DNA from: an uncultured Bacilli bacterium
GTDB taxonomy: Bacteria > Bacillota_I > Bacilli_A > RF39 > UBA660
DNA length: 64,000 bases
Reading direction: 5' to 3'
Assembly: GCA_947629165.1 (NCBI GenBank)
Contig: CANRCR010000004.1
Coordinates: 4,347 to 68,346 of the forward strand
The position numbers were made by a program, and so were the translations under genes. Of this stretch, positions 16,605 to 62,178 are shown in pieces (within the stretch, counting starts at the first letter, position 1; each line of letters begins with the position of its first letter). Under the pieces are notes generated by a model. It did not search any database. It saw only the letters and a program-made list of their open reading frames with translations, and had not been told where the DNA came from.

Positions 16605-16621
16605 TAGAAAGGAGATTTAAC

Positions 16622-16837: not shown

Positions 16838-16838
16838 G

Positions 16839-16866: not shown

Positions 16867-16940
16867 TCGTGTACAAAACTTGGAAAACGAACTAAAATAG
16901 TGTATAATATATATTGGTATAGTGCCATTAGGAGGAATTC

Positions 16941-17897: not shown

Positions 17898-17907
17898 GTG
17901 AATTATG

Positions 17908-18348: not shown

Positions 18349-18359
18349 GAGGTGTTTTT

Positions 18360-19724
18360 ATGCCAGCCAAAAGTTTACCTTATGATAGTGAAGCAGAAGA
18401 ATCGGTTTTAGGAGCGATGTTCCTTTCTCCTTATGCTTTACAAAAATCTTGTGAAACTTTAACGAAAGATTCTTTTTATCTTGAAAAAAATGCCAAAGTC
18501 TTTCAAGCAATGAAATCTTTGGCTGATCAAAAAACCCCCGTTGATTTAACGACCGTAACGGCCGAATTAAAACAAAAAAAAGAATTAAATGATATCGGTG
18601 GAGTGGAATATTTAACGGAAATTTTAAACTTTGTTCCTACGGCTGCCAATATTGATCATTATTTAAAAATCGTCGAAAATGACGCTATTTTAAGAAATTT
18701 AATTACGACAGCCACCGATGTAGTAACGTTAGGATATAATAGTGATGGAAATGTAAACGAAACGTTAGATGAAGCCGAAAGAAAAATATTAAGTGTTATC
18801 AAGAATCGGAAATCAAGTGAATTCCGCAATATTAAAGATGTGCTATATAAAACCCAAAATGATCTAGAAAAGTTAGCGGAACGAAAGGGTGAAATAACAG
18901 GACTTCCAACCGGTTGGTACGATATTGACCGTATTACAGCAGGACTTCACGAAAATGAGTTTATTATTGTTGCGGCTCGACCAGCCATGGGAAAAACGGC
19001 CTTTGCGCTCAATATGGCAACCCATATTGCTATGAATACCGATAAGACCGTGGCTTTATTTAATATGGAAATGAGTGCTGAGCAATTAGCATTAAGAATG
19101 CTTTCGAGTCTAGGGCAAATCGAAGGCTATAAATTACGTACAGGAGCCCTACTAAATAATGATTGGAAACGTATTAACGAAGCGATCAGTCAACTTCAAG
19201 ATGCAAAATTATATATCGACGATACGCCTGGAATTACGATTGGAGAGATTCGTTCAAAATGTCGTCGCCTAGCCAGTTCAGAAGAAGGACTTGGAATCGT
19301 TATTATCGACTACTTACAACTTATTTCAGGTGGAGGAAAATATGGAACTAATCGACAACAAGAAGTATCGGATATTTCCCGTAGTTTAAAGACGATGGCA
19401 ATGGAACTTCATGTTCCCGTAGTAGCGTTAGCCCAATTGTCTCGTGCTGTTGAAGGACGTGAAGACAAACGCCCAATTATGAGTGATTTACGTGAATCTG
19501 GATCCATCGAGCAGGATGCCGATATTGTCTCTTTCTTATACCGTGACGATTACTACAACAAAGAAGCGCGTACCGACGATAATACGAGTATAAGTGAATT
19601 TATTATCGGAAAACACCGTAATGGACCTACGACCACCATTGAACTTTTATTTAAAAGAGACACGAGTACTTTCTTAAGTTATAAAAAAGAGGATAAAGAG
19701 GAAAAGGGTGAAAAGAATGAATAA
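18360..19724 (+). CDS. dnaB: Replicative DNA helicase (DnaB family; named DnaC in B. subtilis)
   Basis: Walker A ARPAMGKTAF and RecA-like C-terminal domain; follows rplI as in Bacilli. Confidence 0.95.
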   Translation: MPAKSLPYDSEAEESVLGAMFLSPYALQKSCETLTKDSFYLEKNAKVFQAMKSLADQKTPVDLTTVTAELKQKKELNDIGGVEYLTEILNFVPTAANIDHYLKIVENDAILRNLITTATDVVTLGYNSDGNVNETLDEAERKILSVIKNRKSSEFRNIKDVLYKTQNDLEKLAERKGEITGLPTGWYDIDRITAGLHENEFIIVAARPAMGKTAFALNMATHIAMNTDKTVALFNMEMSAEQLALRMLSSLGQIEGYKLRTGALLNNDWKRINEAISQLQDAKLYIDDTPGITIGEIRSKCRRLASSEEGLGIVIIDYLQLISGGGKYGTNRQQEVSDISRSLKTMAMELHVPVVALAQLSRAVEGREDKRPIMSDLRESGSIEQDADIVSFLYRDDYYNKEARTDDNTSISEFIIGKHRNGPTTTIELLFKRDTSTFLSYKKEDKEEKGEKNE

Positions 19725-21222
19725 AAAAACCATTTTATTTACCATATTAGCAGTATTTACTAGTGCTTTATTAGTTATAATTGATATTCCAGAAACAAAG
19801 GCAAGCCAACCTAAAGAAGTTTACCGCGTTTATCTTGATGGTCAATCACTCGGATTAGTGGAATCCAAAGACGAACTAGAAAATTATATTGACCAAGAAC
19901 AAACCGAAATTAAAGAAAAATATCATGTAGATAAAGTATATATTCCAAACGAACTCGACATTGTCAAAGAAATTACCTTTGATGAAGAAACTGTTTCAAA
20001 CGAAAAAATTTATAATCGAATTCAAAATCAAAGTCCATTTACGATTCAAGGATATAAAATTTTTATCCAAGGAGTCGAAGAACAAAATGAAAATGGCGAA
20101 ATTGAGAAAGAACCAGATCAAGTATTATACGTATTAGATGAAAATGTCTTCTTAGATTCCGTATATAAAACAGCGCGGACATTCATTGATGAAAAAGAAC
20201 TAGAAGCGTATGAAAATGATACTCAAAAACCGATTGTCGATACCGGTAAAATCATAGAAAACGTCTATATTCAAAACGAACAGATGATTACGAAAGAAAA
20301 AATTCCAGTCGATGAAAAAATTTATACCTCTGAAGATGAATTAAGTAAATATCTTTTGTTTGGTACGACCGAAGAGCAAGAAAAATATACCGTTCAAGAA
20401 GGCGATACCATTGAGGAAATTTCTTTTGCTAATAAAATTTCACCAGAAGAATTTTTAATTGCTAATCCTTCTTTTACCTCGGCAAATGACTTATTATTTC
20501 CTGGCGAAGTAGTTAATTTAGGTATTTTACAACCACAACTTAATATTGTAGAAGAAACACACGTAGTTGAACGTCAGACTATCGGTTACAATACTGTTTA
20601 CGAAGATGATCCAAACCAGTATTCTGGACAAGAACAAGTAAAACAAGAAGGACAAGAAGGAATACAACTAGTAACGCAAAAAATTAAAATTGTTAATGGC
20701 GAAAAAACGAACGTTGTAACCATTGAAACAAAAGAGGAAAAACCATCCGTTGATCGTATTATTGTTCGTGGTACAAAACAACGTAATGTCGGAGGAGGAA
20801 TTGATGACGGAGTAGAAGTACCAGTAGAAATAGGAACTTGGGTATGGCCAACCATTTCTCCATATCAAATAACGAGTCCATTCTCTTATCGTTGGGGAAA
20901 ATTACATGAAGCCGTCGATATTTCTGGTTGTGGTTATGGTTCTCCAATCAAAGCAGCAAACAATGGTATTATTGTTTACTCCGGATATAATGGAACGAAT
21001 GGTAATTTTATTTACATTAAACATAGTAATGGTCAGTATACGGAATACGCGCATATGGCTACACGATATAAAAAGGCAGGAGACATTGTATATGCCGGAG
21101 ACGTTATTGGAACCATGGGTCAAACCGGATATGCTTTTGGAACACACTTACACTTTGGACTTTGGTGGGGTCATCCACATCGTAGTTCTTCGACACCGGT
21201 TAATCCGCTCAGTCATTACTAA
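19717..21222 (+). CDS. Secreted/membrane-anchored M23 (LytM) peptidase with LysM and G5-like domains
   Basis: N-terminal transmembrane/signal segment, LysM (YTVQEGDTIEEISFANKISPEEF), and C-terminal LytM motifs HEAVDI and HLHFGL. Confidence 0.8.
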   Translation: MNKKTILFTILAVFTSALLVIIDIPETKASQPKEVYRVYLDGQSLGLVESKDELENYIDQEQTEIKEKYHVDKVYIPNELDIVKEITFDEETVSNEKIYNRIQNQSPFTIQGYKIFIQGVEEQNENGEIEKEPDQVLYVLDENVFLDSVYKTARTFIDEKELEAYENDTQKPIVDTGKIIENVYIQNEQMITKEKIPVDEKIYTSEDELSKYLLFGTTEEQEKYTVQEGDTIEEISFANKISPEEFLIANPSFTSANDLLFPGEVVNLGILQPQLNIVEETHVVERQTIGYNTVYEDDPNQYSGQEQVKQEGQEGIQLVTQKIKIVNGEKTNVVTIETKEEKPSVDRIIVRGTKQRNVGGGIDDGVEVPVEIGTWVWPTISPYQITSPFSYRWGKLHEAVDISGCGYGSPIKAANNGIIVYSGYNGTNGNFIYIKHSNGQYTEYAHMATRYKKAGDIVYAGDVIGTMGQTGYAFGTHLHFGLWWGHPHRSSSTPVNPLSHY

Positions 21223-21983
21223 TGAAAATTAAAGTATTAGCAAGTGGTTCCAAAGGAAATAGTACTTATATCGAAAGCCACCAAAGTAAAATATTAATCG
21301 ATATAGGAATCAATTATTTAACATTACAAAAAAAATTAAATGAGATAGCTATCGATGCTAAAACCATCGATGCTATCTTTATTACCCATACCCATACGGA
21401 TCATATTAAAGGATTGGCTAGTTTGGTAAAAAAGAATAAAATCCCAGTATATGGCTCTCCGTTAGTAATCGACGAATTAACGAAAATTATTTCCCAAGAA
21501 TATTTACATGTTATCGATCGAGAACTAACATTTCAAGATATCGAAATTGAAACGATTCCTTTATCACATGATGCCGAAGGCACAGTGGGTTATAAAATGA
21601 AAATGGATCAAGAAAATTTAGTTTATATAACGGATACGGGATATGTAAATGAACGCTTATTTAAACGGCTTACCAATGCAAGTGTCTATATTATAGAAAG
21701 TAATCACGATGAAAAAATGCTCATGAATGGTCCTTATCCTTATTATTTAAAACAACGCGTTGTAGGCGATAGTGGCCACCTTTCGAATTATACCACCGCC
21801 ACTTATTTAACCAATTGGATTGGTCCTAAAACAAAGTATGTAATATTAGCCCATTTAAGTGAAAACAATAATACAGAAGAAGTAGCGTATGAAACCGTAC
21901 ATGGTATTTTAGTGGAAGCAAAAAAAGAAAGACCACTCGTCATCGCTAAACAACGAGAAGCCACACCGTTAATCGAGGTTTAA
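21222..21983 (+). CDS. MBL-fold metallo-hydrolase (WalJ/YycJ-like)
   Basis: HxHxDH motif (ITHTHTDH). Sits immediately upstream of rlmH as walJ does in Bacilli. Confidence 0.8.
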   Translation: MKIKVLASGSKGNSTYIESHQSKILIDIGINYLTLQKKLNEIAIDAKTIDAIFITHTHTDHIKGLASLVKKNKIPVYGSPLVIDELTKIISQEYLHVIDRELTFQDIEIETIPLSHDAEGTVGYKMKMDQENLVYITDTGYVNERLFKRLTNASVYIIESNHDEKMLMNGPYPYYLKQRVVGDSGHLSNYTTATYLTNWIGPKTKYVILAHLSENNNTEEVAYETVHGILVEAKKERPLVIAKQREATPLIEV

Positions 21984-21984
21984 A

Positions 21985-22440
21985 ATGATTAAAATAATAT
22001 GTGTTGGAAAACTCAAGGAAACTTATTTACGAGAAGCACTTGAAGAATATCAAAAAAGACTTTCTAAATACACCAATTTAGAAATAATTGAACTACAAGA
22101 TGAAGGAATCGAAGATAAAGTAGTCGCTTTAAAAAAAGAAGAGGAACGTATTTTAAAAGTACTTTCTCCCAAGGATTATGTAGTTACTTTAGAGATTGAA
22201 GGAAAAGAGTACGATTCTATAACATTTTCTAAAAAAATAGAAACCTGGTTCATTCAAAATAGTAACCTAACATTTATAATTGGAGGATCCTACGGATTAA
22301 GTGATACGATTAAAAATCGATCGAACGAAAAAGTATCCTTTAGTAAAATGACTTTTCCTCATCAACTATTTCGTATTTTACTATTAGAACAACTCTATCG
22401 TGGTTTTAAAATTAGTAAAAACGAATCTTATCACAAATAA
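21985..22440 (+). CDS. rlmH: 23S rRNA (pseudouridine1915-N3)-methyltransferase RlmH
   Basis: SPOUT fold, about 150 aa, begins MIKIICVGKLKE. Confidence 0.9.
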   Translation: MIKIICVGKLKETYLREALEEYQKRLSKYTNLEIIELQDEGIEDKVVALKKEEERILKVLSPKDYVVTLEIEGKEYDSITFSKKIETWFIQNSNLTFIIGGSYGLSDTIKNRSNEKVSFSKMTFPHQLFRILLLEQLYRGFKISKNESYHK

Positions 22441-35911: not shown

Positions 35912-38900
35912 ATGAAAAAACACAAAGGTAGGATAATCTCATTTGTATTATTTGCGTTAGTCTTCTTAGGCTTTGCAGCGGTACCACAGGTTTTAGCGGA
36001 TCCAATTGTTCATAATGTTGAACCTGGTACAGGTACTTTAAAAAAGGCACTTGAAGATTCGAATGTAAATGATGGAGATATCTTTATTTTAAGAGAAGGT
36101 TCTTATAGTGGAGTAGCCGAAGAACCAGTAAAGATAACCAAGGCTATTACATTACAAGGAGTAGGAAGTAATTATCGTAGTAACCGTGCTACTACAACGA
36201 TTAACGTTCCTATTGAGATTGATGTAGAAAGTCCTGAGAAGACAGTAACTTTAAAAGGTATTTCATCAGGTATTCAATCAGTCTCTAGAGATTATATGTT
36301 TGTCAAAGTGAATAGTCCGGTTCATTTAATTATGGATGATGTTTCTAACTGGGGAATATTACGTGGTGAATCAAACGGAAAATTTGGTGTTCATGAAGCA
36401 ACATCTCTTAAAGTTGAACAAGAAGCGGATGGTTCTAATATCGAAATAAAAAATAGTCGCTTATCTCGTGCTGGAACACATTATGGAATCAATATTCTTT
36501 CATCGAATACCACAGTTACCGTTAATGATTCCGAGATTCATGGAAGAACAGCTATTAACTTAGAATCTGGAAGTGGTAATAACATTACCATTAATAATAC
36601 AGGTATCGAAGGACGTTCCATTTATTATGCCGATGCTATGGCTATTAACGTAAAAGAACAAAATAATCTAACAATGAATTTAAATAACGTAGATATCGTA
36701 GGTACCTATACAAAAGATGGTAACCCTGACCAAAAAGAAAGTATCTTTGCTTTTAGCAATAATAATAATACGGTAAATCTTAGTCTATCTGAAGTTACGA
36801 TTGAAGATAGAAGTAAATCAAGTGAAAGTGTAATTTTTGATTTCGGTGACAATGCTACTTCTCAAAATATCCAAATTACGGACAATGCCACCAAGTACTT
36901 ATCAACAGATAATCAACCTGTCACTTTAGACCATAAATATAGTAAAGGTGACACTTATGCCGTTGTTGGAACTTATGACTTTGAAGGCAAAGGTGAAATT
37001 AATATCCATGCAGGAAATACCGAAATTTCAGAATTAGAAAATCCAAAATATATAACCAAGGAAAATTATAACTTTAAAGGTTGGTTCAAGAATTTTGATG
37101 GAACTGCTTATTCGGACGAATATACCAAGGCTGGTGAAAGTTATCCTCAAACTGTTGCAGGAACTAACTTGGATTTATATGCTAAACTAGTTAAAGTTTT
37201 GAAAGTAAAAATTACAGGTATCCCTAAAGATGGTGGAACGGAAGAAAAAGAGTTTGATGTCGAAGAAGGAGAAACCCTTGAACAAAGCGCTTCTCATGTA
37301 GATATAAAAGATGCTTTAGATAAGATTAAAGCTAGTAAACCTGATCAAACATTCCAAGGATATATTGTTTATAATGATAAAGGTGCCCAAACCTATAAAC
37401 CTGAACAAGAAGATGTACTTTTCAAAGAATTATCGATTACTCAAGATTGTCAAATTGAGGCTATTCATCAAGTTAAAGTAACAATTAATGGTACGGAATT
37501 TTTTATCAATTCCGGTCAAACTTTAAAAGATCTTAAGAGTAGTAAACCAAGCGAATACGATACTGCTAAAATGTTAAATAGTAAAAACCGTGAATTTTCT
37601 CGTTTTGTTGATGCCGAAGGACAAGAAGTAAGTGAAGAAAAAATGCTTACTGCTAATGTCGAGTTAACTTCGAAGTTCCTAGTTAAAGTAACGATTGCTA
37701 GTCAAGAATATTCGATTGAAGAAGGACAAAAACTAAATAGTAAAGATGATATAAAAGAGGCTTTAGAAAGTCTTAAAACAGTCGAAGGAAAACGTTTTGG
37801 TAGATTTGTAATAAATAATGAAGAAATTAATCCAGATGACAAAACATTAACCGAAGATGCTACCATCACCGCTATTTATGTAATACAAGTAACCATCGGT
37901 GAAAGCGATTCTTATACGATTGATGAAGGCAAAAATTTAAATAGTTTAACAGCTCAACAAGAAGAAATAAAAGGTAAAATAAAGGCGCTAGAAAATACCG
38001 TTCCTATGGATCAAAGTTTTAAAGGAATCGCTGTATTTGATACAGAAAATGGTCAAGATAGGAAATTATATCAAACATCACAAGAAAAAAATATCGAAGC
38101 TATTGCTGAAGAAATAATGAATGAAACATTCTCTAAAGATACCAAAGTAATGGCTGAATACAATGTAAAAGTTACAATTAAAGGTGCTACGGAAGATGCC
38201 AATAAAACATTTGAGGTAGAAATTGGTTCAACCCTAGAAGACCTTACGAAAGATGCTAATGCTTCTTCTTATAAAGAGGCTAAATATCGGGATAAAGATG
38301 AAGATCGCTTCTCTCGTTTTATCGATGAAGAGAGTCATACGTTTGAAGAAAATAAACCGATTGAGGCCAATGTAACTTTAACGCCAATTTATTTTGTAAA
38401 GGTAACGATAAGTGGTAGCCAATATCTACTTGAAGAAAATCAAACCATCGATGATTTTACTAATGAAGATGCCAAGGCCGCTTTAGCAAAATTAAGAACT
38501 GATAAGACGGATGAAGATAGTAACATCAATTTACATTTTGAAAAGTTAGTACTTAAGGATAGTACCGATCAAACCGTCGATGATAAATACCAAATCACTA
38601 AAGATATTGAGATTATTGGAATCTATCACTACGATGTAAAAATTCACGAAGATTATAAAGATGAAACAGAAGATAAAGTCAAAAGATATAATGTCCTTGA
38701 AGGTAAAAATTTATCGGAAGATGACCAACAGGAAGCGATTTCTACATCCTTAGAAGCATTAAAAAACAGCACTATAGCATCAAATCAACAATTCTATAAA
38801 TTTTATGATTTATTATCAAGTAAAGAATACACGGAAGAAGAATTATTAAATACTATTTTCAATACGCATATTGATATTTCTGCTAAAGTTTCTTATAAGG

Positions 38901-41266
38901 TTACCGTTGGTGGAACCAGTGAATTTATTCCTGAAGGAATGCCACTAAGTAGTAATCAAAATATAATGAATGCCCTTAATGCTCTTAAAGAAACTTCTGA
39001 CAAAGAGTTCTCACAATATAAAGTAAATGAGGATTTAGAAGAGGTAAGTGGTGACACCATTGTTAATGAGCCAATGACGATAACGGCTGCTTATAACGTT
39101 TTATTAACGATTGGTGAAGAGACTTTTGAAATTCCTGAAAACGGAAAAATTACCGATTACAATCCTCAAGAAAAGATTACAGCAGCTCTTGATAATTTAA
39201 AAACTCAAGAAACGGCTACAAACCATAACTTTAAAGGTTATTACTATACTGCTGAAGATGGAAATCATGATATAGATGTGTCCGAAACAACATTTGCAAA
39301 AAATACTACGATTTTAGCAAAATACAATATTAAGATAACGATTAAAGGTATAACCGATGATCAAAATAAAGATTTTGAGCTAGACTCAAATCAAACGTTA
39401 AAAGATATTAAAGAACAACCGGATTATCAAACAGTAACATCGAAAGCAGATAGAACATTTGCAGAAAAATTCCGTGATGAAGATGGAAATATCGTTACCG
39501 AAGAAACACCTTTTGAAGAAAATGCTATTTTAACTCCAATCTTTAATGTTAAAGTAACTATTAATGATACGGATTATTATTTAGAAGAAGGAACAGAGTT
39601 AGGTACTCCAGAAATTAAAGCAGCACTTGAAGTATTTGAAAAAGAAGATAAACAAGTACATGGCTATGTCTATGGTGAAAACACTCCAATAACTTTAACT
39701 GATAAAGTTAACGATAATATTACCATTAAACCGGTATATTATGTTAGACTTACTATTCAATATGGAAGTGAAACTATTGGTACTTTCGAGTTCTCAGAAA
39801 ACAAATCAATTGCTGACCTTGAACTTGCAACGAAAACACCTATTCAAAATGCTTTGACTACTTTAAAATCTAAAGTTGCTGCCGATGATTATAATTTCAA
39901 GAAATATGTATCCGAAGATAATACCGAATTTACTGAAAGTACTCCGGTTACTAAAAATACGACGGTAACTGCTCAGTATAATATTCAAATTACGATCGAA
40001 GGAGAAAATGGAACTGAAACCTTTGAAATCGATTCGAATGGAACTTTAGAAAATGTTAAACAAGCCGATAGCACGAAGTTTGATAATATTCAAGAAAAAT
40101 CAGAAAGAACTTTCTTATATTTCGAAGTTCAAGATGAGGATAAAACGCAACTAAAGAACGATGATAATACGTATCAATTTACGAAAAACACTAAATTAGT
40201 TTCCAAGTATGCTGTCACTGTTAAGATTGATACTAATGATTATCAACTTCTAGAGGGAACCAAACTTTCAAGCAATGCGGATATTGTTACTGCTCTAAAA
40301 CAACTTGAAAAACCAAACAAACATCTCGTTTCTTACTCAACGGATAAAGGACAAACAATCACTGTTGAAGATCTTAATAGCAAAACAGATTCCGTTATTA
40401 ATGATAATGTTACTATAACTCCAAAATATATGATTGATATTGTAATTGAGGGTGCTGAAACATTTACAAGAACAGTTGAAGAAAATACAACTTTAGGAAG
40501 TCTCGATTATACAAAACCAACAAACTTTAAGAAGTTTGTAGACGCTGAAACAGGTCTTGATATATTAGAAGAAACTCCACTTACTGAAAATACGAAAGTA
40601 AAAGCAATTTATGGTATTAAAGTAATTGCTAATGGTCATGAATACGAATTAGATTCATTCAAAACCTTTGGTGATTTAAGTGGAGCCGATGATGATTTAG
40701 ATGCCTTAAAAGAAGTACCCGCCGGCAAAGTAGCATTTAGTCGTTTTGTCTATATAAATGGGCAAGGTGTAGAAATTGAACTTAAACCGGATACCATTCT
40801 TACAACGGATATTACAGTTGTTCCTAAATTTACAATCGAATTAACTATCGTCTACACAGATGATAAAGGCGAACAAGTTGAACTTGTTAAATTAGAACTT
40901 GAAGAAGGAAAAACAATAAACGATTTAAGTGAAGAGGAACTAACTAAACTAAATGCAAAGATAAAGGAACGTGAAGAAGAATTTGAAAACGAAGGCAAAC
41001 ACGATTTCAAATTTACTAAGTTTACTATTGAAGGCGAAGATGTTGATGTTTCGATTGCTACTTTCAAAGAAAATGCAATCTTAGAAGCAATTTTCGAGTA
41101 TAAACCCGAAACAGTACCAGAAAAACCTGAGGAAGATTATCCATTTAAAGAACCTGCTCCAAATACAGGCGTAACAACGACGACCAATAACACCATGTTT
41201 ATACCACTAATTATTCTTCCTGTAATAGGTATTTTAGGCCTTAGAAAAAAATTATTTAATCATTAA
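35912..41266 (+). CDS. Cell-wall-anchored giant surface protein (1784 aa): N-terminal beta-helix-like domain plus about 18 Flg_new/Listeria-Bacteroides-type repeats and a C-terminal sorting signal
   Basis: Signal peptide; parallel beta-helix-like repeats (NNITINNTGIEGRS). The repeat signature is GW[FY]...LYAKL (YNFKGWFKNFDG...LDLYAKLV), followed by many degenerate about 85-aa KVTI repeats. C-terminus is PAPNTG, then a transmembrane helix, then RKK. Confidence 0.85.
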   Translation: MKKHKGRIISFVLFALVFLGFAAVPQVLADPIVHNVEPGTGTLKKALEDSNVNDGDIFILREGSYSGVAEEPVKITKAITLQGVGSNYRSNRATTTINVPIEIDVESPEKTVTLKGISSGIQSVSRDYMFVKVNSPVHLIMDDVSNWGILRGESNGKFGVHEATSLKVEQEADGSNIEIKNSRLSRAGTHYGINILSSNTTVTVNDSEIHGRTAINLESGSGNNITINNTGIEGRSIYYADAMAINVKEQNNLTMNLNNVDIVGTYTKDGNPDQKESIFAFSNNNNTVNLSLSEVTIEDRSKSSESVIFDFGDNATSQNIQITDNATKYLSTDNQPVTLDHKYSKGDTYAVVGTYDFEGKGEINIHAGNTEISELENPKYITKENYNFKGWFKNFDGTAYSDEYTKAGESYPQTVAGTNLDLYAKLVKVLKVKITGIPKDGGTEEKEFDVEEGETLEQSASHVDIKDALDKIKASKPDQTFQGYIVYNDKGAQTYKPEQEDVLFKELSITQDCQIEAIHQVKVTINGTEFFINSGQTLKDLKSSKPSEYDTAKMLNSKNREFSRFVDAEGQEVSEEKMLTANVELTSKFLVKVTIASQEYSIEEGQKLNSKDDIKEALESLKTVEGKRFGRFVINNEEINPDDKTLTEDATITAIYVIQVTIGESDSYTIDEGKNLNSLTAQQEEIKGKIKALENTVPMDQSFKGIAVFDTENGQDRKLYQTSQEKNIEAIAEEIMNETFSKDTKVMAEYNVKVTIKGATEDANKTFEVEIGSTLEDLTKDANASSYKEAKYRDKDEDRFSRFIDEESHTFEENKPIEANVTLTPIYFVKVTISGSQYLLEENQTIDDFTNEDAKAALAKLRTDKTDEDSNINLHFEKLVLKDSTDQTVDDKYQITKDIEIIGIYHYDVKIHEDYKDETEDKVKRYNVLEGKNLSEDDQQEAISTSLEALKNSTIASNQQFYKFYDLLSSKEYTEEELLNTIFNTHIDISAKVSYKVTVGGTSEFIPEGMPLSSNQNIMNALNALKETSDKEFSQYKVNEDLEEVSGDTIVNEPMTITAAYNVLLTIGEETFEIPENGKITDYNPQEKITAALDNLKTQETATNHNFKGYYYTAEDGNHDIDVSETTFAKNTTILAKYNIKITIKGITDDQNKDFELDSNQTLKDIKEQPDYQTVTSKADRTFAEKFRDEDGNIVTEETPFEENAILTPIFNVKVTINDTDYYLEEGTELGTPEIKAALEVFEKEDKQVHGYVYGENTPITLTDKVNDNITIKPVYYVRLTIQYGSETIGTFEFSENKSIADLELATKTPIQNALTTLKSKVAADDYNFKKYVSEDNTEFTESTPVTKNTTVTAQYNIQITIEGENGTETFEIDSNGTLENVKQADSTKFDNIQEKSERTFLYFEVQDEDKTQLKNDDNTYQFTKNTKLVSKYAVTVKIDTNDYQLLEGTKLSSNADIVTALKQLEKPNKHLVSYSTDKGQTITVEDLNSKTDSVINDNVTITPKYMIDIVIEGAETFTRTVEENTTLGSLDYTKPTNFKKFVDAETGLDILEETPLTENTKVKAIYGIKVIANGHEYELDSFKTFGDLSGADDDLDALKEVPAGKVAFSRFVYINGQGVEIELKPDTILTTDITVVPKFTIELTIVYTDDKGEQVELVKLELEEGKTINDLSEEELTKLNAKIKEREEEFENEGKHDFKFTKFTIEGEDVDVSIATFKENAILEAIFEYKPETVPEKPEEDYPFKEPAPNTGVTTTTNNTMFIPLIILPVIGILGLRKKLFNH

Positions 41267-44642: not shown

Positions 44643-44698
44643 AGTTAGCAAATGAATTACTATGATGAAAATTCATCATGGCGGAAGGAGAGATAGAA

Positions 44699-45743: not shown

Positions 45744-45797
45744 ATGATGTATATTTTTTTATCTTTCGTTCAAACTCTTAATGAGGTGGAAAAAAAG

Positions 45798-46430
45798 ATG
45801 AAAAAAAGATTGAAATTGAAAGCATTTGTATTACCGATGATCTATACGACGGCAACATTAGTAATTGTTTTAAGTGCTTTCTTCTTAACGAATGCATTAC
45901 AAAGTGTACAACCGGAAGAAGAAGACTTAACCTATGTATCCAATGTGGTAGCAGAGCAAGAGGTCCCAGTCGTTAATACGGAAAAGACGATTATTCGTCC
46001 GTATAGCGATTCGGCAGTTACCATCGCGCGTTATTTTTATGATTCCAAAGCGGAACAAGAAAAACAGCAAAACGCTTTGATTTATTATGAAAATACGTAT
46101 ATGCAAAACTCTGGAGCCGATTATACGCTCGATACAACCTTTGATGTATTAGCCGTACTCGATGGAACAGTACTATCCGTCGAAGACAACGAACTTTTAG
46201 GTAAAACAGTCAAAATTCGTCACGAAAACGATTTGATTAGTGTATATCAAAGTTTAAGTGAAGTAGCTGTAAAGAAAGACGATACCGTAACACAAGGACA
46301 AATGATCGGTAAGAGTGGAACCAATACCCTCGATAGTAATCTTGGAAATCATTTACATTTTGAAATATACTATCAAGGACAAGTAATGGATCCCGAAGCA
46401 ATCTACAACAAAAAAATGAGTGATTTATAG
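45798..46430 (+). CDS. SpoIIQ-like membrane-anchored LytM (M23) domain protein
   Basis: Single N-terminal transmembrane segment plus a LytM domain with HxH (GNHLHFEIY). Sits directly upstream of spoIIID-mbl. RBS GAGGTGG; start trimmed to MKKRLKLK. Confidence 0.6.
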   Translation: MKKRLKLKAFVLPMIYTTATLVIVLSAFFLTNALQSVQPEEEDLTYVSNVVAEQEVPVVNTEKTIIRPYSDSAVTIARYFYDSKAEQEKQQNALIYYENTYMQNSGADYTLDTTFDVLAVLDGTVLSVEDNELLGKTVKIRHENDLISVYQSLSEVAVKKDDTVTQGQMIGKSGTNTLDSNLGNHLHFEIYYQGQVMDPEAIYNKKMSDL

Positions 46431-46485: not shown

Positions 46486-46755
46486 GTGATAAAGTTGAAA
46501 AAAGAGATGAAAGAAAGAGTTTTACAGGAAGCCTTATATATGGAGAAAACCAAAGAAACGATTCGTGCGATTGCAAGCCATTTTAATGTTTCGAAAAGTA
46601 CCGTCCATAAAGATTTAAAAGAAAGATTAACTGATATTGACTTGGAACTGGCTTCTCGAATTAGCTCCATTTTAAATCATCATAAAGAAGAAAGACATAT
46701 TCGGGGAGGAGAATCGACGAAAAAGAAATATATGGAAATGAAAATAAAAAAGTAG
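46486..46755 (+). CDS. spoIIID: Stage III sporulation protein D (SpoIIID), HTH transcription factor
   Basis: VSKSTVHKDL HTH and ILNHHKEERHIRGGESTKKKY closely match SpoIIID. The start is probably TTG at 46495 (AGGTGA 5 nt upstream). Confidence 0.9.
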   Translation: MIKLKKEMKERVLQEALYMEKTKETIRAIASHFNVSKSTVHKDLKERLTDIDLELASRISSILNHHKEERHIRGGESTKKKYMEMKIKK

Positions 46756-47749: not shown

Positions 47750-47844
47750 AGAAGATAAAACCTTATAAAAATAGGTTTTTTTCTTTTACAATAGAATTTT
47801 AATTTGCTATAATCTAGGTAATGAGTTATAAAGAGGTGTCGTTT

Positions 47845-48936
47845 ATGTTCGATAAAGAAGTAACCAATGTTATTGTTATGGTACTAACGACGTTTATTGT
47901 AAGTGCACTTATTATGCCAGTGATGAAACGCATGGCACACCATATAGGAGCAATCGATGTTCCCCGAAATGATGAAGGGAAACGTCATATTCATAAAAAA
48001 CCCATCCCTAAATTAGGGGGCGTTGGAATTTTTTTAAGTTTTCTGGTTGGCTACATGATCTTTGGTACACACAGTGTTAAAATGAATGCTATTTTAATTG
48101 GAGGATTCCTTATTATCTTGACTGGTATTATGGATGATATTCATGATTTGAGAGCATCTTATAAACTCATCGGTCAAATTGCTGCGGCATTAGTAGTTAC
48201 TATTTACGGTGGAATTTTAATGGAAAATATTACCATTTTAGGTTTACCTAAAATTAACTTTGGAATCTATTCTTATCCCATTACGATCTTTTTCATCGTC
48301 GCTTGTGTGAATGTCATAAACTTAATCGACGGACTCGATGGATTGAGTGGGGGAATATCCTCTATTTTCTACTTAACGACCGGTATTATTTGTTTTTATC
48401 AAATGCGTGTCGGGAGTTTAGAAATGATTCTCAGTTTCATCATGCTAGGCGCTACTTTAGGATTTTTACTGCACAACTTTTATCCCGCCAAGATTTTCGC
48501 TGGAGATTGTTCCCAATTTATGGGATTTATGATCGCAATTATTTCCTTATTAGGATTTAAAACCACTGCTTTTACAACGATATTTGTTCCTTTATCGATT
48601 ATTGCGATTCCAATATTAGATACCTTATTTGCTATTATTAGAAGACTATTAAAAGGACAAGCACCTTTTCAAGCGGATAAACAACATTTACATCATCAAC
48701 TTTTAGGAATGAATTTTTCTCAACGAACTACGGTGTTAATAATATATGTAATTGATGCTTTATTTGCTTTAACATCGATCTTCTATGTCCTAAACGATTC
48801 TATTCTTGCTATGTCGATTTATGGAGTGTTATTTATTTTAATTATATGGTTTGTATGCTACACCAATATTATTACGGATAAAAGGCCTCCCAAATTTAAA
48901 GAGATAAAATCTAAAATAAAACAAAAAAGGGTATAA
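47845..48936 (+). CDS. tagO: Glycosyltransferase family 4 (MraY/WecA/TagO-like polyprenol-phosphate HexNAc-1-phosphate transferase)
   Basis: About 10 transmembrane helices and conserved DD and VINLIDGLDGL motifs. Start moved to ATG 47845 (AGAGGTG RBS). Confidence 0.8.
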   Translation: MFDKEVTNVIVMVLTTFIVSALIMPVMKRMAHHIGAIDVPRNDEGKRHIHKKPIPKLGGVGIFLSFLVGYMIFGTHSVKMNAILIGGFLIILTGIMDDIHDLRASYKLIGQIAAALVVTIYGGILMENITILGLPKINFGIYSYPITIFFIVACVNVINLIDGLDGLSGGISSIFYLTTGIICFYQMRVGSLEMILSFIMLGATLGFLLHNFYPAKIFAGDCSQFMGFMIAIISLLGFKTTAFTTIFVPLSIIAIPILDTLFAIIRRLLKGQAPFQADKQHLHHQLLGMNFSQRTTVLIIYVIDALFALTSIFYVLNDSILAMSIYGVLFILIIWFVCYTNIITDKRPPKFKEIKSKIKQKRV

Positions 48937-48988
48937 CATCTACTATACCTTTTTAAGTGCCTTAAATTAATTAGAAAGAGTGATAAAA

Positions 48989-49726
48989 ATGATTAATTTT
49001 ATTATTTGTGATGATAGTCATGAATTTATAGAAGAAATGAAACAATTGGTAGATCGTTTTATGATGAACTACGATATGGAATACCAATGTATTTTATTAG
49101 ATGATTATGGGAAGAAGTTTCGTGATGTAGTAAATAAAGAAATGGGCTTTAAAGTTTATTTATTAGATATTCAAATGGGAAAGAGTTCTGGACTCGATGC
49201 AGCACGTTATATTCGTGAAGAATATGATGATTGGGTATCGATTATCGTGATTGTTACTGCTTATAATCAGTACAAATACGATGCTATGAGCAATCGGCTC
49301 TATTTACTTGATTATATTAATAAGTTGGATAATTGTGAAAAGAAAGTAAAAGAAGTGTTAGAACTAGCAATCAAACACTATGACCATCGTCATAAAATGC
49401 TCACTTTTGAATATGAGCATGTCGTTCGTAAGATTGAGTACCGGCATATCGTCTATATCGAAAAAGAACCGGATTCAAAACTATGTAAAATTAAAACCAC
49501 CTATGGAGAACAATATATTAATAAATCCGTCAATCAAATTGCTAAAATTTTAGAGAAAGAAAAACGTTTTATGAAAGTAAGTAGAAGTATGATTGTAAAT
49601 CTTGATCAAATCGCAGAGTACGATACAATCGAAACAAAAATTTTATTCAAAAATGGCGAGAGCAGTTATCTTATCTCAAGAGATTACAAAAAGGAGTTGA
49701 GACGCCGTGTTAATAGCAATAACTAG
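48989..49726 (+). CDS. agrA: LytTR-family response regulator (AgrA-like)
   Basis: Receiver domain (IICDD...LLDIQM) and a C-terminal LytTR DNA-binding domain (KIEYRHIVYIEKEPDSKLCKIKTTYGEQYI...KVSRSMIVNLDQI). Confidence 0.85.
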   Translation: MINFIICDDSHEFIEEMKQLVDRFMMNYDMEYQCILLDDYGKKFRDVVNKEMGFKVYLLDIQMGKSSGLDAARYIREEYDDWVSIIVIVTAYNQYKYDAMSNRLYLLDYINKLDNCEKKVKEVLELAIKHYDHRHKMLTFEYEHVVRKIEYRHIVYIEKEPDSKLCKIKTTYGEQYINKSVNQIAKILEKEKRFMKVSRSMIVNLDQIAEYDTIETKILFKNGESSYLISRDYKKELRRRVNSNN

Positions 49727-51014
49727 AATTATATGTAATGAAATTCTATTAATAGCAGGTTTCTTTACGATACGAAAATTAATTAACGAACCTACTTTAA
49801 AATTTAGCCTTAACAAAATTATAATTATTTTAATTGGAGCATGTTTGGTTTCGTTTATAACAATAGAAAAGTATCAAATTATAACTCCTATTTTATCCTA
49901 TTTAATATTTTTAATAATTTATAAATTTATATTTTCTTTTTCTATAACTGAAGCAGTCGTCGATACAGGAATATTTATGATATTGGTTTTTCTTGCAGAA
50001 TTAATTCTTTCACCAATTGTCTTTATAACCCTTCCTAATGTAGAAGTAGCTCGATCTGTACCATGGATTATGATTCTATCTAATATCAGTATTAGCCTAC
50101 TTGCTTATCTTATTAGTAAAATAAAAATTGTTAATAATATGTGCAGTAAATTAGTAAGTAAAATTGACAAAATAAAATGGAAAGAAACCATTACTTTTAT
50201 TATACTAACAATTATTATCTTAAGTGTAATTTTTTCGATTATAGCTAATATCTATAAATTTACGCCCGAATCCTTTATTTGTTTACTGACCGTTATGATT
50301 TTTATTATATTGTTTAGTTTGTATAGTAGGGAAACAAATGAATATATTATCTTAACAGATCAGTATGATGAATTACTTAAATATGTAAGTGAGTTTGAAC
50401 AATTAGCCGATAGTATCGAAGTAGAAAGACATGAGTACAAAAATGATTTAGCCATTTTACAGACAAAAGTAAAAGATAAAGAAATAAAAGAATTTATAAA
50501 TCAAAAATTAACGCAGAAAATGGAAGTGGATACGAGTTGGCAAAAGTCTTTAAAAGAGTTACCGGAAGGCGGTATTAAAGGATTATTATATTATAAAATT
50601 ATTCTAGCTAAAAATAAAAAAATTGAAATTAAAGTGGATATTAGTAAGCAATCAAAAAAGTATTTAAAAAGAATCGATGAACCCGATTACAAAATTTTAT
50701 GTCGACTATTTGGAATCTATTTAGATAATGCGATTGATGCTACAATGAATTCCAAAGAAAAAAGTATGGCTATCGAAATATATGAGTTAAAAAATAAATT
50801 GAATATTGTTATATCCAACAGTTTTACTGGCACTATCGATTTATCGAAAGTAAATAAAAAGGGTTATACAACAAAAGGTGCTGGTCATGGTAAAGGCTTA
50901 TATTATGCAGACAGAATAATTAAAGAAAATCCAATATTTAAAGCAGAGAATAGTATTATAAACCATTTTTATATTTTAAGATTAGTAATCGATCCTACTA
51001 AAAAGAGCCTATGA
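49707..51014 (+). CDS. agrC: AgrC-like (HPK10) sensor histidine kinase
   Basis: 6-7 N-terminal transmembrane helices, H-box ERHEYKNDLAIL, and a GHKL ATPase of the AgrC/ComD type (LFGIYLDNAIDA...GAGHGKGLY). GTG start overlaps agrA by 20 nt. Confidence 0.85.
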   Translation: MLIAITRIICNEILLIAGFFTIRKLINEPTLKFSLNKIIIILIGACLVSFITIEKYQIITPILSYLIFLIIYKFIFSFSITEAVVDTGIFMILVFLAELILSPIVFITLPNVEVARSVPWIMILSNISISLLAYLISKIKIVNNMCSKLVSKIDKIKWKETITFIILTIIILSVIFSIIANIYKFTPESFICLLTVMIFIILFSLYSRETNEYIILTDQYDELLKYVSEFEQLADSIEVERHEYKNDLAILQTKVKDKEIKEFINQKLTQKMEVDTSWQKSLKELPEGGIKGLLYYKIILAKNKKIEIKVDISKQSKKYLKRIDEPDYKILCRLFGIYLDNAIDATMNSKEKSMAIEIYELKNKLNIVISNSFTGTIDLSKVNKKGYTTKGAGHGKGLYYADRIIKENPIFKAENSIINHFYILRLVIDPTKKSL

Positions 51015-51023
51015 TAGGCTCTT
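51003..51023. terminator. Bidirectional hairpin between convergent agrC and agrD
   Basis: AAGAGCCTAT / ATAGGCTCTT inverted repeat overlapping the agrC stop, flanked by A-runs and T-runs. Confidence 0.6.
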
Positions 51024-51026
51024 CTT

Positions 51027-51149
51027 TTAATCTTGTAAACTTTTTGGAGCAACAGGTTCGTCAATCATAATAATTAAGCATCCAAGACTTGCAGCACTTG
51101 ACGCAACCATTGCAGCAGCAGCTAAAGCTAATGATAACATTTTTTTCAT
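51027..51149 (-). CDS. agrD: AgrD-like autoinducing-peptide precursor (40 aa, not in the ORF track)
   Basis: Reverse-strand ORF MKKMLSLALAAAAMVASSAASLGCLIIMIDEPVAPKSLQD with strong RBS AAGGAGG. It has a hydrophobic leader, a single Cys followed by four hydrophobic residues (CLIIM), and a charged tail DEPxxPKSLxD. That tail resembles the staphylococcal and clostridial AgrD C-terminal recognition motif. Confidence 0.75.
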   Translation of the reverse strand: MKKMLSLALAAAAMVASSAASLGCLIIMIDEPVAPKSLQD

Positions 51150-51204
51150 TTTTACTACCTCCTTTAATTCTTCTCTATGTGAAGTACATTGCTGTACACT
51201 TCAC

Positions 51205-51801
51205 CTAATTGACCTTTTTCCAATTACAATAAGGTTGTCCTAAAATACGATAAGTAATTGGTAAAATAACAATCATTTGAATAATTAAAGAGATGAGTAA
51301 CAAGCGACTAATCGTATCATTTGGAATGAGAAAAACACCAAGTGTATAGATAATTCCAATAATAACGGTAACAATTTTTCGAATTAACCTTTTCTTTTTA
51401 TTTCGAAGAGGTCTTTTTACGGTGTCACTAGGAGCATATAAGAGATAAGATAAGAGACAAATACCACAAATAACTGCCTGAATCCAAAGATTCATTGATA
51501 AATGTAAAAAAATATAAGGGATTACAATAAAATAAATTGTAGAAGTAATTAAACAAGTTTTACTATCGCCAGCATGTACTCCAAAACCAGTAAAACGAAT
51601 AATATTAAAGAGAATTAATATTAGAAAAACTTCCTGTTCCATATGGAGCAAGAAAGCCAAAAGAACGATAACCACAAGTTTAGTAAGGGTTAAATAAATT
51701 CCCTCCAGTCCATAACGTAATAATTCTAATTCTTCTTTTGTATATGGATCATGATATTGTTGAATTAAGTTCATAGTTTTATTTAAAAATAATTCCTTCA
51801 T
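51205..51801 (-). CDS. agrB: AgrB-family membrane peptidase (AIP processing/export)
   Basis: Polytopic membrane protein with the conserved catalytic His...Cys block (RFTGFGVHAGDSKTCLITS) in the AgrB position. RBS GAGGTG 6 nt upstream of ATG (MKELFLNK). Confidence 0.8.
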   Translation of the reverse strand: MKELFLNKTMNLIQQYHDPYTKEELELLRYGLEGIYLTLTKLVVIVLLAFLLHMEQEVFLILILFNIIRFTGFGVHAGDSKTCLITSTIYFIVIPYIFLHLSMNLWIQAVICGICLLSYLLYAPSDTVKRPLRNKKKRLIRKIVTVIIGIIYTLGVFLIPNDTISRLLLISLIIQMIVILPITYRILGQPYCNWKKVN

Positions 51802-51861
51802 ACTGCACACCTCGGAATTCTAAATCATAAAAATTATATACAAAAAATAGCCCAAAGAATT

Positions 51862-51932
51862 AAATTGGTATTAATTGGTAAAAAATTTGTAAAAATTTGG
51901 TATTTTTTGTCGAATTTTATGAATTTGTTACC
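51862..51932. promoter_or_regulatory. Tandem about 10-bp direct repeats (AATTGGTA / AATTTGTA / AATTTGGTA / AATTTGTTA) upstream of agrB, candidate LytTR (AgrA) binding sites
   Basis: Copies at 51863, 51873, 51884 and 51894 with helical periodicity, plus a further copy at about 51922. They lie 55-130 bp upstream of the agrB start, in the agrB/csp divergent region. Confidence 0.45.
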
Positions 51933-52024
51933 GAAAAAGGCACTAAAATGACAAGTTAAGGAAATTTTTACCAAAGAGTAATTTTTTTGATAAGATGGAT
52001 ATGCGCAAAAAAGGAGTGTTATTC

Positions 52025-52285
52025 ATGAAAACGCAAATAGTTGAAGAGAAAGAAGGAGGAAATGCTGTGAGAGGTACAGTAAAGTGGTTCAACAATGAGA
52101 AAGGTTACGGATTTATTGATAGCCCTGGGAAAGAAGATATATTCGTACACTATTCAGCCATTAAATGTGAAGGATACAAAACATTAGCTGAAGGACAAAC
52201 GGTAGAATTTAAATTGCTTGAAACTTCAAAAGGATTACAAGCCGTTAATGTGACCCCAATCCAAGAAGCAGTAACAACCGCCTAA
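52025..52285 (+). CDS. csp: Cold-shock protein (CspA family) with a short N-terminal extension
   Basis: RNP1 KGYGFI and RNP2 FVHYS motifs; start ATG 52025 after AAAGGAGTG. Confidence 0.85.
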
Positions 52286-52300
52286 GCGGTTCTTTTTTTT
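52276..52300 (+). terminator. Rho-independent terminator after csp
   Basis: Stem AACCGC, loop CTAA, stem GCGGTT, then T9. Confidence 0.75.
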
Positions 52301-52376
52301 GAAAAATTATGGAAAAAAGACAAAATTAGATAAATTTTTAAGGAAACTATGATATGATATAGAAAAGGAGGACGAA

Positions 52377-52910
52377 TTGTACATGAAAGTTACAATCAGA
52401 GGGGAAAAGACAAAAATTACCCAAGCAATGACAGATTATGCAAATGAAAAGTTGGCAAAATTAGATAAGTATGTCGACAATAGTGCAACTGTAAATGCAA
52501 ATGTTTTGGTGAAACTTCGTAATCATCAAGACAAGGTAGAAGTTACGATTCCCCTAAAATCTTATATCTTAAGAGCAGAGGAGTCACAAGATGATTTCTA
52601 TGCTGCTATCGACGTCGTAGTAGAGAAATTAGAAAGGCAGATTCGAAAGAATAAGACCCGCTTACAATCACAAATAAGAGACAAGAAAGAATTCCTATTC
52701 GATAATTTAGAACAAGAAGAGGAAGAGGAAAAAGAAGTGATTGTAAAACGCAAAAAAGTCGAAGTAAAACCAATGAGTGAAGAAGAAGCTATTCTTCAAA
52801 TGGAATTACTCGGTCACCAATTTTATTTGTTTAAAGATGTCGATACCAATCAGCCAACAGTAATCTATAAGAGAAAAGATGGAGATTACGGAATTATCGA
52901 GGCTGAATAA
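52377..52910 (+). CDS. hpf: Ribosome hibernation promoting factor (long form HPF/YvyD)
   Basis: N-terminal RaiA-like domain (KVTIRGEK...IT) plus a C-terminal dimerisation domain. Start is TTG 52377 or ATG 52383. Confidence 0.9.
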   Translation: MYMKVTIRGEKTKITQAMTDYANEKLAKLDKYVDNSATVNANVLVKLRNHQDKVEVTIPLKSYILRAEESQDDFYAAIDVVVEKLERQIRKNKTRLQSQIRDKKEFLFDNLEQEEEEEKEVIVKRKKVEVKPMSEEEAILQMELLGHQFYLFKDVDTNQPTVIYKRKDGDYGIIEAE

Positions 52911-60835: not shown

Positions 60836-60894
60836 TATTGAAAAAGAAATAAGATTGTTTTATAATGAATACATAAATAATTTTTAAAAATTTA

Positions 60895-60988
60895 CCTTAT
60901 TGAGAGTGATGGAGGGAATAGGCCCTGTGAAGTCCAGCAACCTATTAAATTAGGTGCTAAATCCTACGGTAAATGCCGAGAGATAAGG
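60895..60988 (+). ncRNA. SAM-I (S-box) riboswitch aptamer upstream of metK
   Basis: CTTATTGAGAGTGATGGAGGGAATAGGCCCTGTGAAGTCCAGCAACC...GTGCTAAATCCTACGG...GCCGAGAGATAAGG matches the S-box consensus with P1 closure CTTAT/ATAAG. Confidence 0.85.
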
Positions 60989-60995
60989 ATAATCC

Positions 60996-61059: not shown

Positions 61060-62178
61060 ATGGAAAAATTATTTACAACAGAATCAGTAACGATGGGGCA
61101 TCCTGATAAATTGAGTGACCTCATTGCCGATTCGATTTTGGATGCTTACCTAGCAAAAGATGAAGATGCCCGGGTCGCTTGTGAGGTAGCGTTAAGCAAA
61201 AACAAAGTATTTATTATGGGAGAAATAACAAGTAAGGCGAAAGTGGATATCGAACAGGTGGTGCGCAAGGTTATCGTCGAAGTCGGATATAATCGAGACG
61301 AACTCCTTTTTAATGGAAATACCTGTGAATTTGTGATTGATATAAGTAACCAGTCGCCCGATATTGCGCAAGGAGTAAACAAAAAGGATATCGGTGCAGG
61401 AGATCAAGGAATCATGTACGGATATGCGACCAAAGAAACAGAAAATGGTATGCCATTAGTACATAATTTAGCACATGCGTTAACCAAAAGACTCGAAGAA
61501 GTACGAAAGAAAGGAGTTATCGAAGGGCTAAGGCCGGATGGAAAAGCCCAAGTGACACTTGCGAAAAGTGAAAAAGATACCTATGTGAAAACGTTAGTAC
61601 TATCTACCCAACACGATGCATCGAAAGAATTAACGGTATTACGAAAAGAGATTATCGAAAAAGTAATTAAAAAAGTAATTCCTGAGACGTTATTGCGTAA
61701 AGAGACAGAAATACTTATTAATCCAACGGGACGATTTGTAGTAGGAGGTCCCATCGCGGATACGGGTGTCACAGGCAGAAAGACGATGGTTGATACCTAT
61801 GGAGGTCTCGCCCATCATGGCGGAGGTGCTTTTAGTGGAAAAGACTACACCAAAGTGGACCGAAGTGCTGCCTATTATGCGCGATATGTCGCCAAAAACG
61901 TAGTGGCGAATCAGATGGCCGATGAATGTGAAGTGCGTGTTGCCTATGCCATCGGTATTTCAAAACCCGTCATGCTAGAAATAGATACTTTTCATACTTA
62001 TAAGATCCCCGAAATAGAAATAAAAGAATATATTCTAAATAATTTTGATTTTACACCGAAGAATATGATAAAAGAACTTGCTTTAAAAAAACAAAAGTAT
62101 GCAGAAACAACTAGAAACTATCATTTTGGAAAAGATTCTTTCCCTTGGGAAAAAGTAAAAAAAGTTCCTTCAAAATAA
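61060..62178 (+). CDS. metK: S-adenosylmethionine synthetase
   Basis: MEKLFTTESVTMGHPDKLSDLIADSILDAYL and GGGAFSGKD motifs. Confidence 0.95.
   Translation: MEKLFTTESVTMGHPDKLSDLIADSILDAYLAKDEDARVACEVALSKNKVFIMGEITSKAKVDIEQVVRKVIVEVGYNRDELLFNGNTCEFVIDISNQSPDIAQGVNKKDIGAGDQGIMYGYATKETENGMPLVHNLAHALTKRLEEVRKKGVIEGLRPDGKAQVTLAKSEKDTYVKTLVLSTQHDASKELTVLRKEIIEKVIKKVIPETLLRKETEILINPTGRFVVGGPIADTGVTGRKTMVDTYGGLAHHGGGAFSGKDYTKVDRSAAYYARYVAKNVVANQMADECEVRVAYAIGISKPVMLEIDTFHTYKIPEIEIKEYILNNFDFTPKNMIKELALKKQKYAETTRNYHFGKDSFPWEKVKKVPSK

Follow-up and report, generated by a model that had tools for sequence, protein, structure and literature searches.

A 64,000-nucleotide stretch of DNA from an uncultured Bacilli bacterium (contig CANRCR010000004.1; here called the window) carries, at positions 48989 to 51945, what is very probably a working agr-type system for quorum sensing by an autoinducing peptide, arranged as two converging operons. 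On the plus strand are genes for a response regulator of the LytTR type (RR) and an AgrC-like histidine kinase (HK), and facing them on the minus strand are agrB and agrD. The open reading frame (ORF) list of the window contains all four genes intact, in the places and the convergent layout given by the original prediction, which had been made from the letters alone, and matches to Pfam and NCBIfam families bear out its assignment of four agr components. The flanking genes are also as it had named them: a tagO-like gene on one side, and on the other csp, which is divergent from agrBD, with hpf and then secA beyond it (Table 1).

In the pathway that these genes would make up, AgrB would use His76 and Cys83 to cut the tail beginning D30-E31-P32 off the AgrD precursor, and Cys24 would be joined to the new C-terminus to give a thiolactone of five (CLIIM) or six (CLIIMI) residues. 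For these two rings with 0-4 tail residues, the calculated [M+H]+ values range between 574.31 and 1015.57, with 574.309 for CLIIM and 687.393 for CLIIMI. The hydrophobic leader of AgrD would be taken off outside the cell or on export. The kinase, with its seven transmembrane (TM) segments, would sense the peptide and phosphorylate Asp60 of the RR, whose dimers would bind direct repeats with a 21-nt spacing, located between agrB and csp. The best-conserved pair of repeats is upstream of the predicted promoter of csp, and weaker boxes on the opposite strand may give feedback on agrBD, depending on the lineage.

The four agr components

The agrB product matches the Pfam family PF04647 with an E-value of 1.5e-29 (103 bits, against a cutoff of 23), and PF04647 is found in all 251 AgrB homologues. 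His76 and Cys83, which are seven residues apart, are invariant across 25 homologues, and we take their spacing to be that of the catalytic H77 and C84 in the AgrB of Staphylococcus aureus. From the family match and these two residues we predict a polytopic membrane peptidase/cyclase; a sequence search for a solved AgrB structure found none. It had been foreseen, before these searches, that the ORF might fail AgrB models (for example, as a CAAX protease) and that the kinase might belong to a non-peptide-sensing family. Neither turned out to be the case. By its Pfam and NCBIfam matches the agrB product is neither a CAAX protease nor another kind of protein, and HK has the features of a peptide-sensing kinase: about seven hydrophobic or TM segments in residues 2-207 (by hydropathy), an H-box histidine (His242) and a GHKL ATPase domain (Pfam HATPase_c_5, 4.6e-8). 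Its sensor consists of TM helices with no extracellular domain, as in AgrC, and S. aureus AgrC is the only protein with solved structures to which a PDB sequence search relates it (6e52 and 4bxi). Its best NCBIfam match is also staphylococcal AgrC, over residues 19-424, at 53 bits compared to an equivalog cutoff of 500.

The RR has Pfam LytTR (1.9e-12) and Response_reg (2e-8) domains, and its receiver has the acidic residues Asp8, Asp9 and Asp60. A profile of its family, compared with solved structures, hits ComE best (4cbv, 6.6e-13), and also the LytTR domain of S. aureus AgrA (3bs1 and 4xqq, ~7e-10); against the equivalog model for staphylococcal AgrA the RR scores 38 bits, where the cutoff is 400. 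Thus, among the models named in the original prediction, PF04647, LytTR and HATPase_c_5 match but the staphylococcal AgrD family PF05931 does not. AgrD passes a different model, NCBIfam TIGR04223 ('AgrD family cyclic lactone autoinducer peptide'), with 24 bits against a cutoff of 19.

The HK ORF overlaps the RR ORF by 20 nt (the RR stop codon is at 49724-49726), which makes the proposed translational coupling, with RR first, plausible. The hairpin that had been noticed between the converging stop codons is real and folds on both strands (-11.9 kcal/mol, z = -3.4 on the plus strand; -16.5 kcal/mol, z = -4.5 on the minus strand). The HK stop codon, TGA, forms its loop, and it ends 3 nt short of the agrD stop codon. 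Because it is flanked by an A-run on its 5' side and a T-run on its 3' side, it would be able to terminate both operons.

The AgrD of the window reads MKKMLSLALAAAAMVASSAASLG-C24-LIIMI-D30EP-VAPKSLQD (40 residues), which is laid out as a hydrophobic leader, a conserved cysteine, a variable core and a conserved acidic/proline tail. An AgrD was found in every related locus long enough to include its position, and we took the equivalent ORF from each of these (n = 81). All 81 read ..AS-x-G-C-x5-[DE]EP, with exactly five residues between the cysteine and [DE]EP, and they have 77 distinct x5 cores. The frame is near-invariant at A-11, A-4, S-3, G-1, Cys and [DE]EP (entropy is at most 0.2 bits at A-11, A-4 and G-1), and entropy is 2.6-3.2 bits at core positions +1, +3, +4 and +5. 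A hypervariable core inside a conserved processing frame is the signature of autoinducing peptides. In clostridia, 6-residue macrocycles (PMC12312760) and tail-less, rearranging peptides (PMC8251862) are both known, and large surveys have catalogued the AgrD families in human gut genomes (PMC11953309).

Distribution and divergence of the locus

By scanning one genome per GTDB species with an AgrB profile we obtained 197 loci, the best 80 of which were kept; because the scan was seeded with AgrB, it covers only genomes that carry the locus. The 80 loci are in metagenome-assembled genomes labelled uncultured Bacilli, Tenericutes, Mycoplasma sp. CAG:877, Candidatus (Ca.) Faecimonas and Ca. Faecenecus. 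The last two belong to GTDB order RF39, family CAG-611, whose genomes are ~1.4 Mb with 28% GC (PMC8035907). A literature search on quorum sensing or sporulation in RF39 found nothing usable. The exact AgrB sequence of the window is present on seven metagenomic contigs, next to the same genes.

The original prediction described the locus as inserted between core genes. This is not supported, because one gene order, mreB-tagO-RR-HK> <agrD-agrB csp>hpf>secA, recurs in about 60 species genomes of RF39-type gut Bacilli. All four agr genes are located between tagO and csp in 61 of the 80 loci, and contig ends cut most of the others. Among contigs with an identical TagO or an identical Csp, each one that extends far enough has the agr genes. 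The GC content of the agr locus is slightly below that of its flanks, which is consistent with genes for membrane proteins. Synteny across the AgrB-carrying loci of the clade, near-flank GC content and the contigs sharing identical TagO or Csp lead us to reject a horizontal insertion or strain-variable island, and on this evidence we read the locus as ancestral and vertically inherited, at an origin-proximal site, in the RF39-type clade.

Some related loci have additional genes. The interval between agrD and RR contains tandem AgrC-like kinase genes in loci L010 (6656-9150), L015 (7631-10251), L032 (7813-10362) and L044 (7450-10176); one of the two kinase genes in L032 may be broken. Such tandem kinases could be two receptors at one locus. 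Two related species have tandem csp copies adjoining agrB (L028, 657-1241; L058, 5341-5961).

We used the median identity to the window protein as a measure of evolutionary rate across species. It is 76% for SecA, 71% for Csp, 69% for MreB, 64% for TagO and 60% for Hpf, compared to 52% for the RR receiver, 50% for AgrB, 45% for the LytTR domain and 41% for the kinase core. Evolution is fastest in the kinase sensor, which was detectable in only 40 loci and has a median identity of 27%.

A second allele within the species is present on contigs L088 and L089. Its nucleotide divergence is 0.2-0.5% in mreB, tagO and secA, 1.5% in RR and 1.2% in the kinase core, and reaches 5.4% in the sensor half of HK, 7.3% in agrD and 7.9% in agrB. 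The core of its AgrD has the change M28L, giving CLIIL. Synonymous divergence (dS) rises alongside, at 0.18-0.30 in the divergent parts versus 0.008 in tagO, which argues that the divergent alleles are old and not merely under relaxed constraint. Because agrBD is inverted, the conserved kinase core parts the two divergent blocks, and this two-block pattern matches what joint selection on peptide, maturase and receptor would predict. A third AgrD core, CIIIF, occurs on contig L092 (ERZ27249446), whose AgrB protein is the same as that of L093. On L092 the kinase is 32% diverged at the nucleotide level beside agrB and csp genes that are 2-8% diverged, and coverage is ~2x. Either the agrD-kinase cassette was exchanged by recombination, or this contig is a chimera that arose in low-coverage assembly.

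Candidate operators in the agrB-csp spacer

We aligned the regulatory spacer (51802-52024 in the window) from 80 species without gaps on its best-conserved block. In 73 of the 80 species a box of the form ACAAtTtAaGGAAA (A-C-A-a-t-T-t-A-a-G-G-A-A-A) is at a fixed place, with C at +1 in 97% and G at +10 in 99%. When these 73 species are stacked, a second box is seen precisely 21 nt upstream (C in 82% at offset -20, and G enriched at -12/-11), and TGnTAnAAT is conserved at offsets +37 to +45. The window has both candidate boxes, followed by a predicted extended -10 for csp. The repeats are ~26 nt ahead of this element, and its hexamer begins 40 nt from the start of the proximal box; if transcription starts ~7 nt past the hexamer, the boxes in the csp promoter run from about -41 to -73. 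Known LytTR sites are imperfect direct repeats of 8-13 bp, ~12 bp apart, just upstream of weak promoters or their -35 elements (PMC4064291, PMC5600425, PMC4227749), and the 9-mer CAAGTTAAG in the proximal box fits the AgrA consensus [TA][AC][CA]GTTN[AG][TG] (PMC5600425) at eight of nine positions. The repeats are near-perfect (ACAATTCACGG-N10-ACAAGTTACGG) in one sub-clade. This kind of operator is found at the csp-facing promoter; for agrBD it is found in at least 18 relatives and is degenerate in the window.

Scored with a matrix made from the clade, the proximal box of the window (18.7 bits) is the top match in the 64 kb. At a threshold of 13 bits or more, the matrix hits 60 loci at the csp site and has 63 matches in the other ~1.8 Mb, counting both strands; many of these 63 are conserved coding sequence. 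A second strong match in the window, at 62341 (16.6 bits), is inside a coding sequence that has its own ribosome-binding site (RBS), and we rejected it as chance.

Because the strongest and most conserved operator faces csp, a gene with its own terminator-like hairpin, we propose that csp is a direct output of the agr RR, holding the position that RNAIII has in staphylococci, and we put somewhat better than even chances on this proposal. Its start is ATG 52025, in agreement with public gene calls, and the hairpin over its stop codon was found in a terminator scan, which makes csp probably monocistronic, with hpf behind it. We suggest more tentatively that csp could be the primary and ancestral target of the RR, perhaps together with hpf by read-through, and that a second input could come through the TGTCGAA tandem described below.

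The boxes could instead belong to control of csp alone, through an UP-like element or a different transcription factor, of the LytTR type or not, with the adjacency of csp and agrBD being frozen synteny in a small genome. The neighbourhood of mreB, tagO, csp, hpf and secA is indeed wholly syntenic, so adjacency by itself is weak proof; the boxes conserved family-wide point to csp and not to agrB; and strong, special regulation is common among csp genes. We nevertheless consider this explanation unlikely, given the fit to the AgrA/LytTR consensus and the 21-nt period upstream of a promoter with no -35, which is a hallmark of LytTR regulation. In addition, the agr RR is the sole LytTR protein seen across the 14-kb loci, and the same type of box is mirrored before the agrB -10 in 18 relatives, which connects this motif with the agr genes.

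On the agrB-facing strand, the matches to the proximal-box matrix in these 18 species are at one fixed offset, ~28 nt before the agrB -10, and L082 and L066 have clear box pairs 21 nt apart. The agrB side of the spacer is poorly conserved across the family. At the corresponding site in the window (ACCAATTAATACCA, 51879-51866) the 5' half of the box is kept and the GG is lost. Four phased units abut the -35 position of agrB here (Table 1). An alternative candidate for the main agrB LytTR operator, TTCGACA(N3)TTCGACA, was rejected because its 10-nt period is unlike LytTR sites, and we re-read it as TGTCGAA on the opposite strand. Separately, L024, L035, L048, L055 and L061 have a near-perfect AT-rich palindrome (AGATTAAAAATTT...AAATTTTTAATCT) over the -35/-10 region of agrB, which may be the operator for a dimeric repressor in that sub-clade.

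Perfect copies of TGTCGAA occur on the csp-sense strand in 52 of the 80 spacers (78 copies, versus 0.8 expected), and in 26 spacers the motif is repeated at a distance of exactly 10 nt, with both copies at set offsets from the LytTR box (-44/-54). The motif is letter-for-letter the 7-bp core of the '0A box' bound by Spo0A (PMC3485338). The tandem might therefore be a pair of Spo0A boxes that wire the locus to the sporulation regulator, like the agr-sporulation link in clostridia. The exact match, the huge enrichment and the fixed tandem geometry make this idea attractive, and the window does encode SpoIIID (46486-46755, plus strand; Pfam 1e-27), directly upstream of the mreB/mbl-like gene and adjoining a gene for an M23 peptidase (45744-46430). 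However, the association between TGTCGAA and spoIIID is inverse. The place of spoIIID is too small in 43 of the 57 related loci that span it, so the gene was lost repeatedly or early; TGTCGAA is present in 33 of these 43 loci, and absent from 9 of the 14 that keep spoIIID. A 10-nt direct-repeat period fits an OmpR-type regulator too, and the C of the TGTCGAA box is 21 nt upstream of the C of the distal LytTR box, so that the agr RR might bind there as well. We regard Spo0A as a rather doubtful binder; an OmpR-type regulator or the agr RR could bind in its place.

Upstream of RR, the 3' end of tagO has a hairpin with a U-run that is likely to be a terminator, and only ~35 nt separate it from the RR start codon. 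Most related loci (e.g., L021, L033, L052 and L067) have a conserved cTGGAAAAATATGGTAAAAT after the tagO terminator and before RR. It consists of a direct repeat of 10 nt, the second copy of which resembles an extended -10. In the window and its nearest relatives cTGGAAAAATATGGTAAAAT is missing, and the gap between tagO and RR is just 52 nt there (48937-48988 in the window). A search of 48800-52400 with Rfam found no known RNA, either RNAIII-like or a riboswitch; its one match, to cspA, is below threshold and falls within the coding part of csp.

Comparison with known agr systems

Several points weigh against a fully agr-like reading of the locus. The staphylococcal equivalog cutoffs are widely missed, and we accordingly treat the RR, HK and the other products as members of their families, claiming no orthology to the S. 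aureus proteins. The size of the thiolactone ring is ambiguous from sequence, five or six residues, because core position +5 varies as much as +1, +3 and +4. No sigma-70-like site was found on the plus strand at 48800-49037 for the RR-HK operon, which in this wiring is probably expressed at a basal level. Autoinduction of agrBD is unsupported in this genome, because the boxes on the agrB side are degenerate and lack the GG. Finally, another LytTR protein elsewhere in the genome, of which the window covers 64 kb, could bind the csp boxes.

It is very improbable that RR-HK and agrBD are not partners, with the peptide made for another receptor or for interference and the kinase sensing something else: although the two pairs have separate promoters and no visible common control, and signal production and sensing can be at different loci in Clostridioides difficile (PMC4453554), here the four genes are kept together in 61 species loci, the sensor is made of TM helices only, and the within-species divergence of agrB, agrD and the sensor half around a conserved kinase core is the pattern expected from peptide-receptor co-diversification.

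The likeness to the S. aureus agr system extends to the same four protein families, the His/Cys spacing of AgrB, the polytopic sensor and the LytTR regulator. Imperfect direct repeats with a 21-nt spacing precede weak promoters in a divergent spacer whose predicted starts are ~180 nt apart, again as in S. aureus, and a hypervariable agrB/agrD/sensor region with allelic groups is likewise shared. The strict staphylococcal layout, a single agrBDCA operon with a divergent RNAIII, is not found: the RF39 order is A-C> <D-B, in converging operons with a common terminator, and the inversion splits the variable region around the conserved kinase core. There is no RNAIII or delta-toxin, and csp is at the position of P3. 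The AgrD of the window is of the clostridial type (TIGR04223 and not PF05931), with C-x5-DEP. The original prediction was right that the order differs from agrBDCA, but this is not an oddity in general, since agrBD and agrCA in separate operons have already been described in clostridia (PMC12312760).

The leader and EP-containing tail of this precursor are also like those of clostridial AgrD. The agr2 locus of C. difficile is listed in the order A, C, D, B (agrA2, agrC2, agrD2, agrB2; PMC3901668, PMC4453554), a likeness that we draw by order alone; agr2 is strain-variable, whereas the RF39 locus is fixed at one origin-proximal site in a family-level clade. ComDE of Streptococcus pneumoniae is similar in its HPK10 kinase and direct-repeat operator, and among solved structures ComE is the closest full-length relative of the RR. 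However, the ComDE signal is a double-glycine peptide exported via a C39 ABC transporter, none of which is present in the agr locus of the window, where the signal would be an AgrD processed by AgrB.

Table 1. Features of the agr locus and its flanks, with positions in the 64-kb window.
Feature	Position	Strand	Details
TagO-like GT4 gene	47821-48936		flank on the RR-HK side
Hairpin + U-run, likely terminator	48925-48954	+	tagO 3' end; -10.4 kcal/mol, z = -4.3
Response regulator (RR), LytTR type	48989-49726	+	245 aa; ATG start preceded by AGAAAGAG
AgrC-like (HPK10-type) histidine kinase (HK)	49707-51014	+	435 aa; GTG start 10 nt past AAAGGAG
Bidirectional intrinsic-terminator hairpin	51003-51023	both	AAGAGCCTA-TGA-TAGGCTCTT, 9-bp stem
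agrD	51027-51149	-	40 aa
agrB	51205-51801	-	198 aa; ATG start; RBS GAGGTG 51808-51813; predicted polytopic membrane peptidase/cyclase
Predicted agrBD -10	51833-51838	-	TATAAT; no good -35; read from sequence
Four phased units	51863-51902	-	ACCAAWTTWW/ACAAATTTTT; 10-12 nt period
TGTCGAA	51908-51914	+	one intact copy; second copy decayed
Distal LytTR-type box (candidate)	51930-51943	+	ACCGAAAAAGGCAC; starts 21 nt upstream of proximal box
Proximal LytTR-type box (candidate)	51951-51964	+	ACAAGTTAAGGAAA
Predicted csp extended -10	51988-51996	+	TGATAAGAT; no -35
csp, cold-shock-domain (CSD) protein	52025-52285	+	86 aa; CSD 4.5e-26; RBS GGAG 52013-52016
Terminator-like hairpin over csp stop codon	52276-52291	+	weak fold, -7.7 kcal/mol, z = -1.5

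Elsewhere in the window, 716-2122 (minus strand) and 2599-22440 (plus strand) are an origin region with dnaA, rnpA, yidC, jag, mnmE, mnmG and rsmG, two parB-like genes with soj (parAB), ssb, rplI and dnaB. Nearly all genes of the window are on the plus strand, and agrBD are among the few exceptions. A Firmicutes leader for ribosomal protein L31 is at 44660-44690 (plus strand, 34.4 bits), and an S-adenosylmethionine (SAM) riboswitch at 60894-60989 (plus strand, 73 bits) is upstream of a gene for S-adenosylmethionine synthetase (61060-62178). A 1784-aa ORF at 35912-41266 (plus strand) has only faint matches to repeat domains (Listeria-Bacteroides repeat, E = 7.5e-4); its product is probably a large surface protein.

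What we infer so far beyond the known systems is that the locus is fixed in an uncultured order with reduced genomes, that its hypervariable region is split, that the operator faces csp and that TGTCGAA occurs in tandem; for the agr field overall, this is an extension rather than a surprise. Bacilli of the RF39 type abound in the gut, and none has ever been cultured. That they keep a four-gene signalling system at a fixed site while much else has been lost suggests that cell-cell signalling matters to their lifestyle. The loci provide 77 natural peptide cores, catalogued together with the receptors that go with them, and a natural experiment in which a conserved kinase core stands between the hypervariable parts for peptide and receptor, and the csp promoter is a concrete, testable candidate output. 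If csp is indeed the primary and ancestral target of the agr RR, this would account for the whole gene block staying together, and it would link quorum sensing by peptide directly to the physiology of RNA chaperones and translation shutdown in a commensal with a reduced genome.

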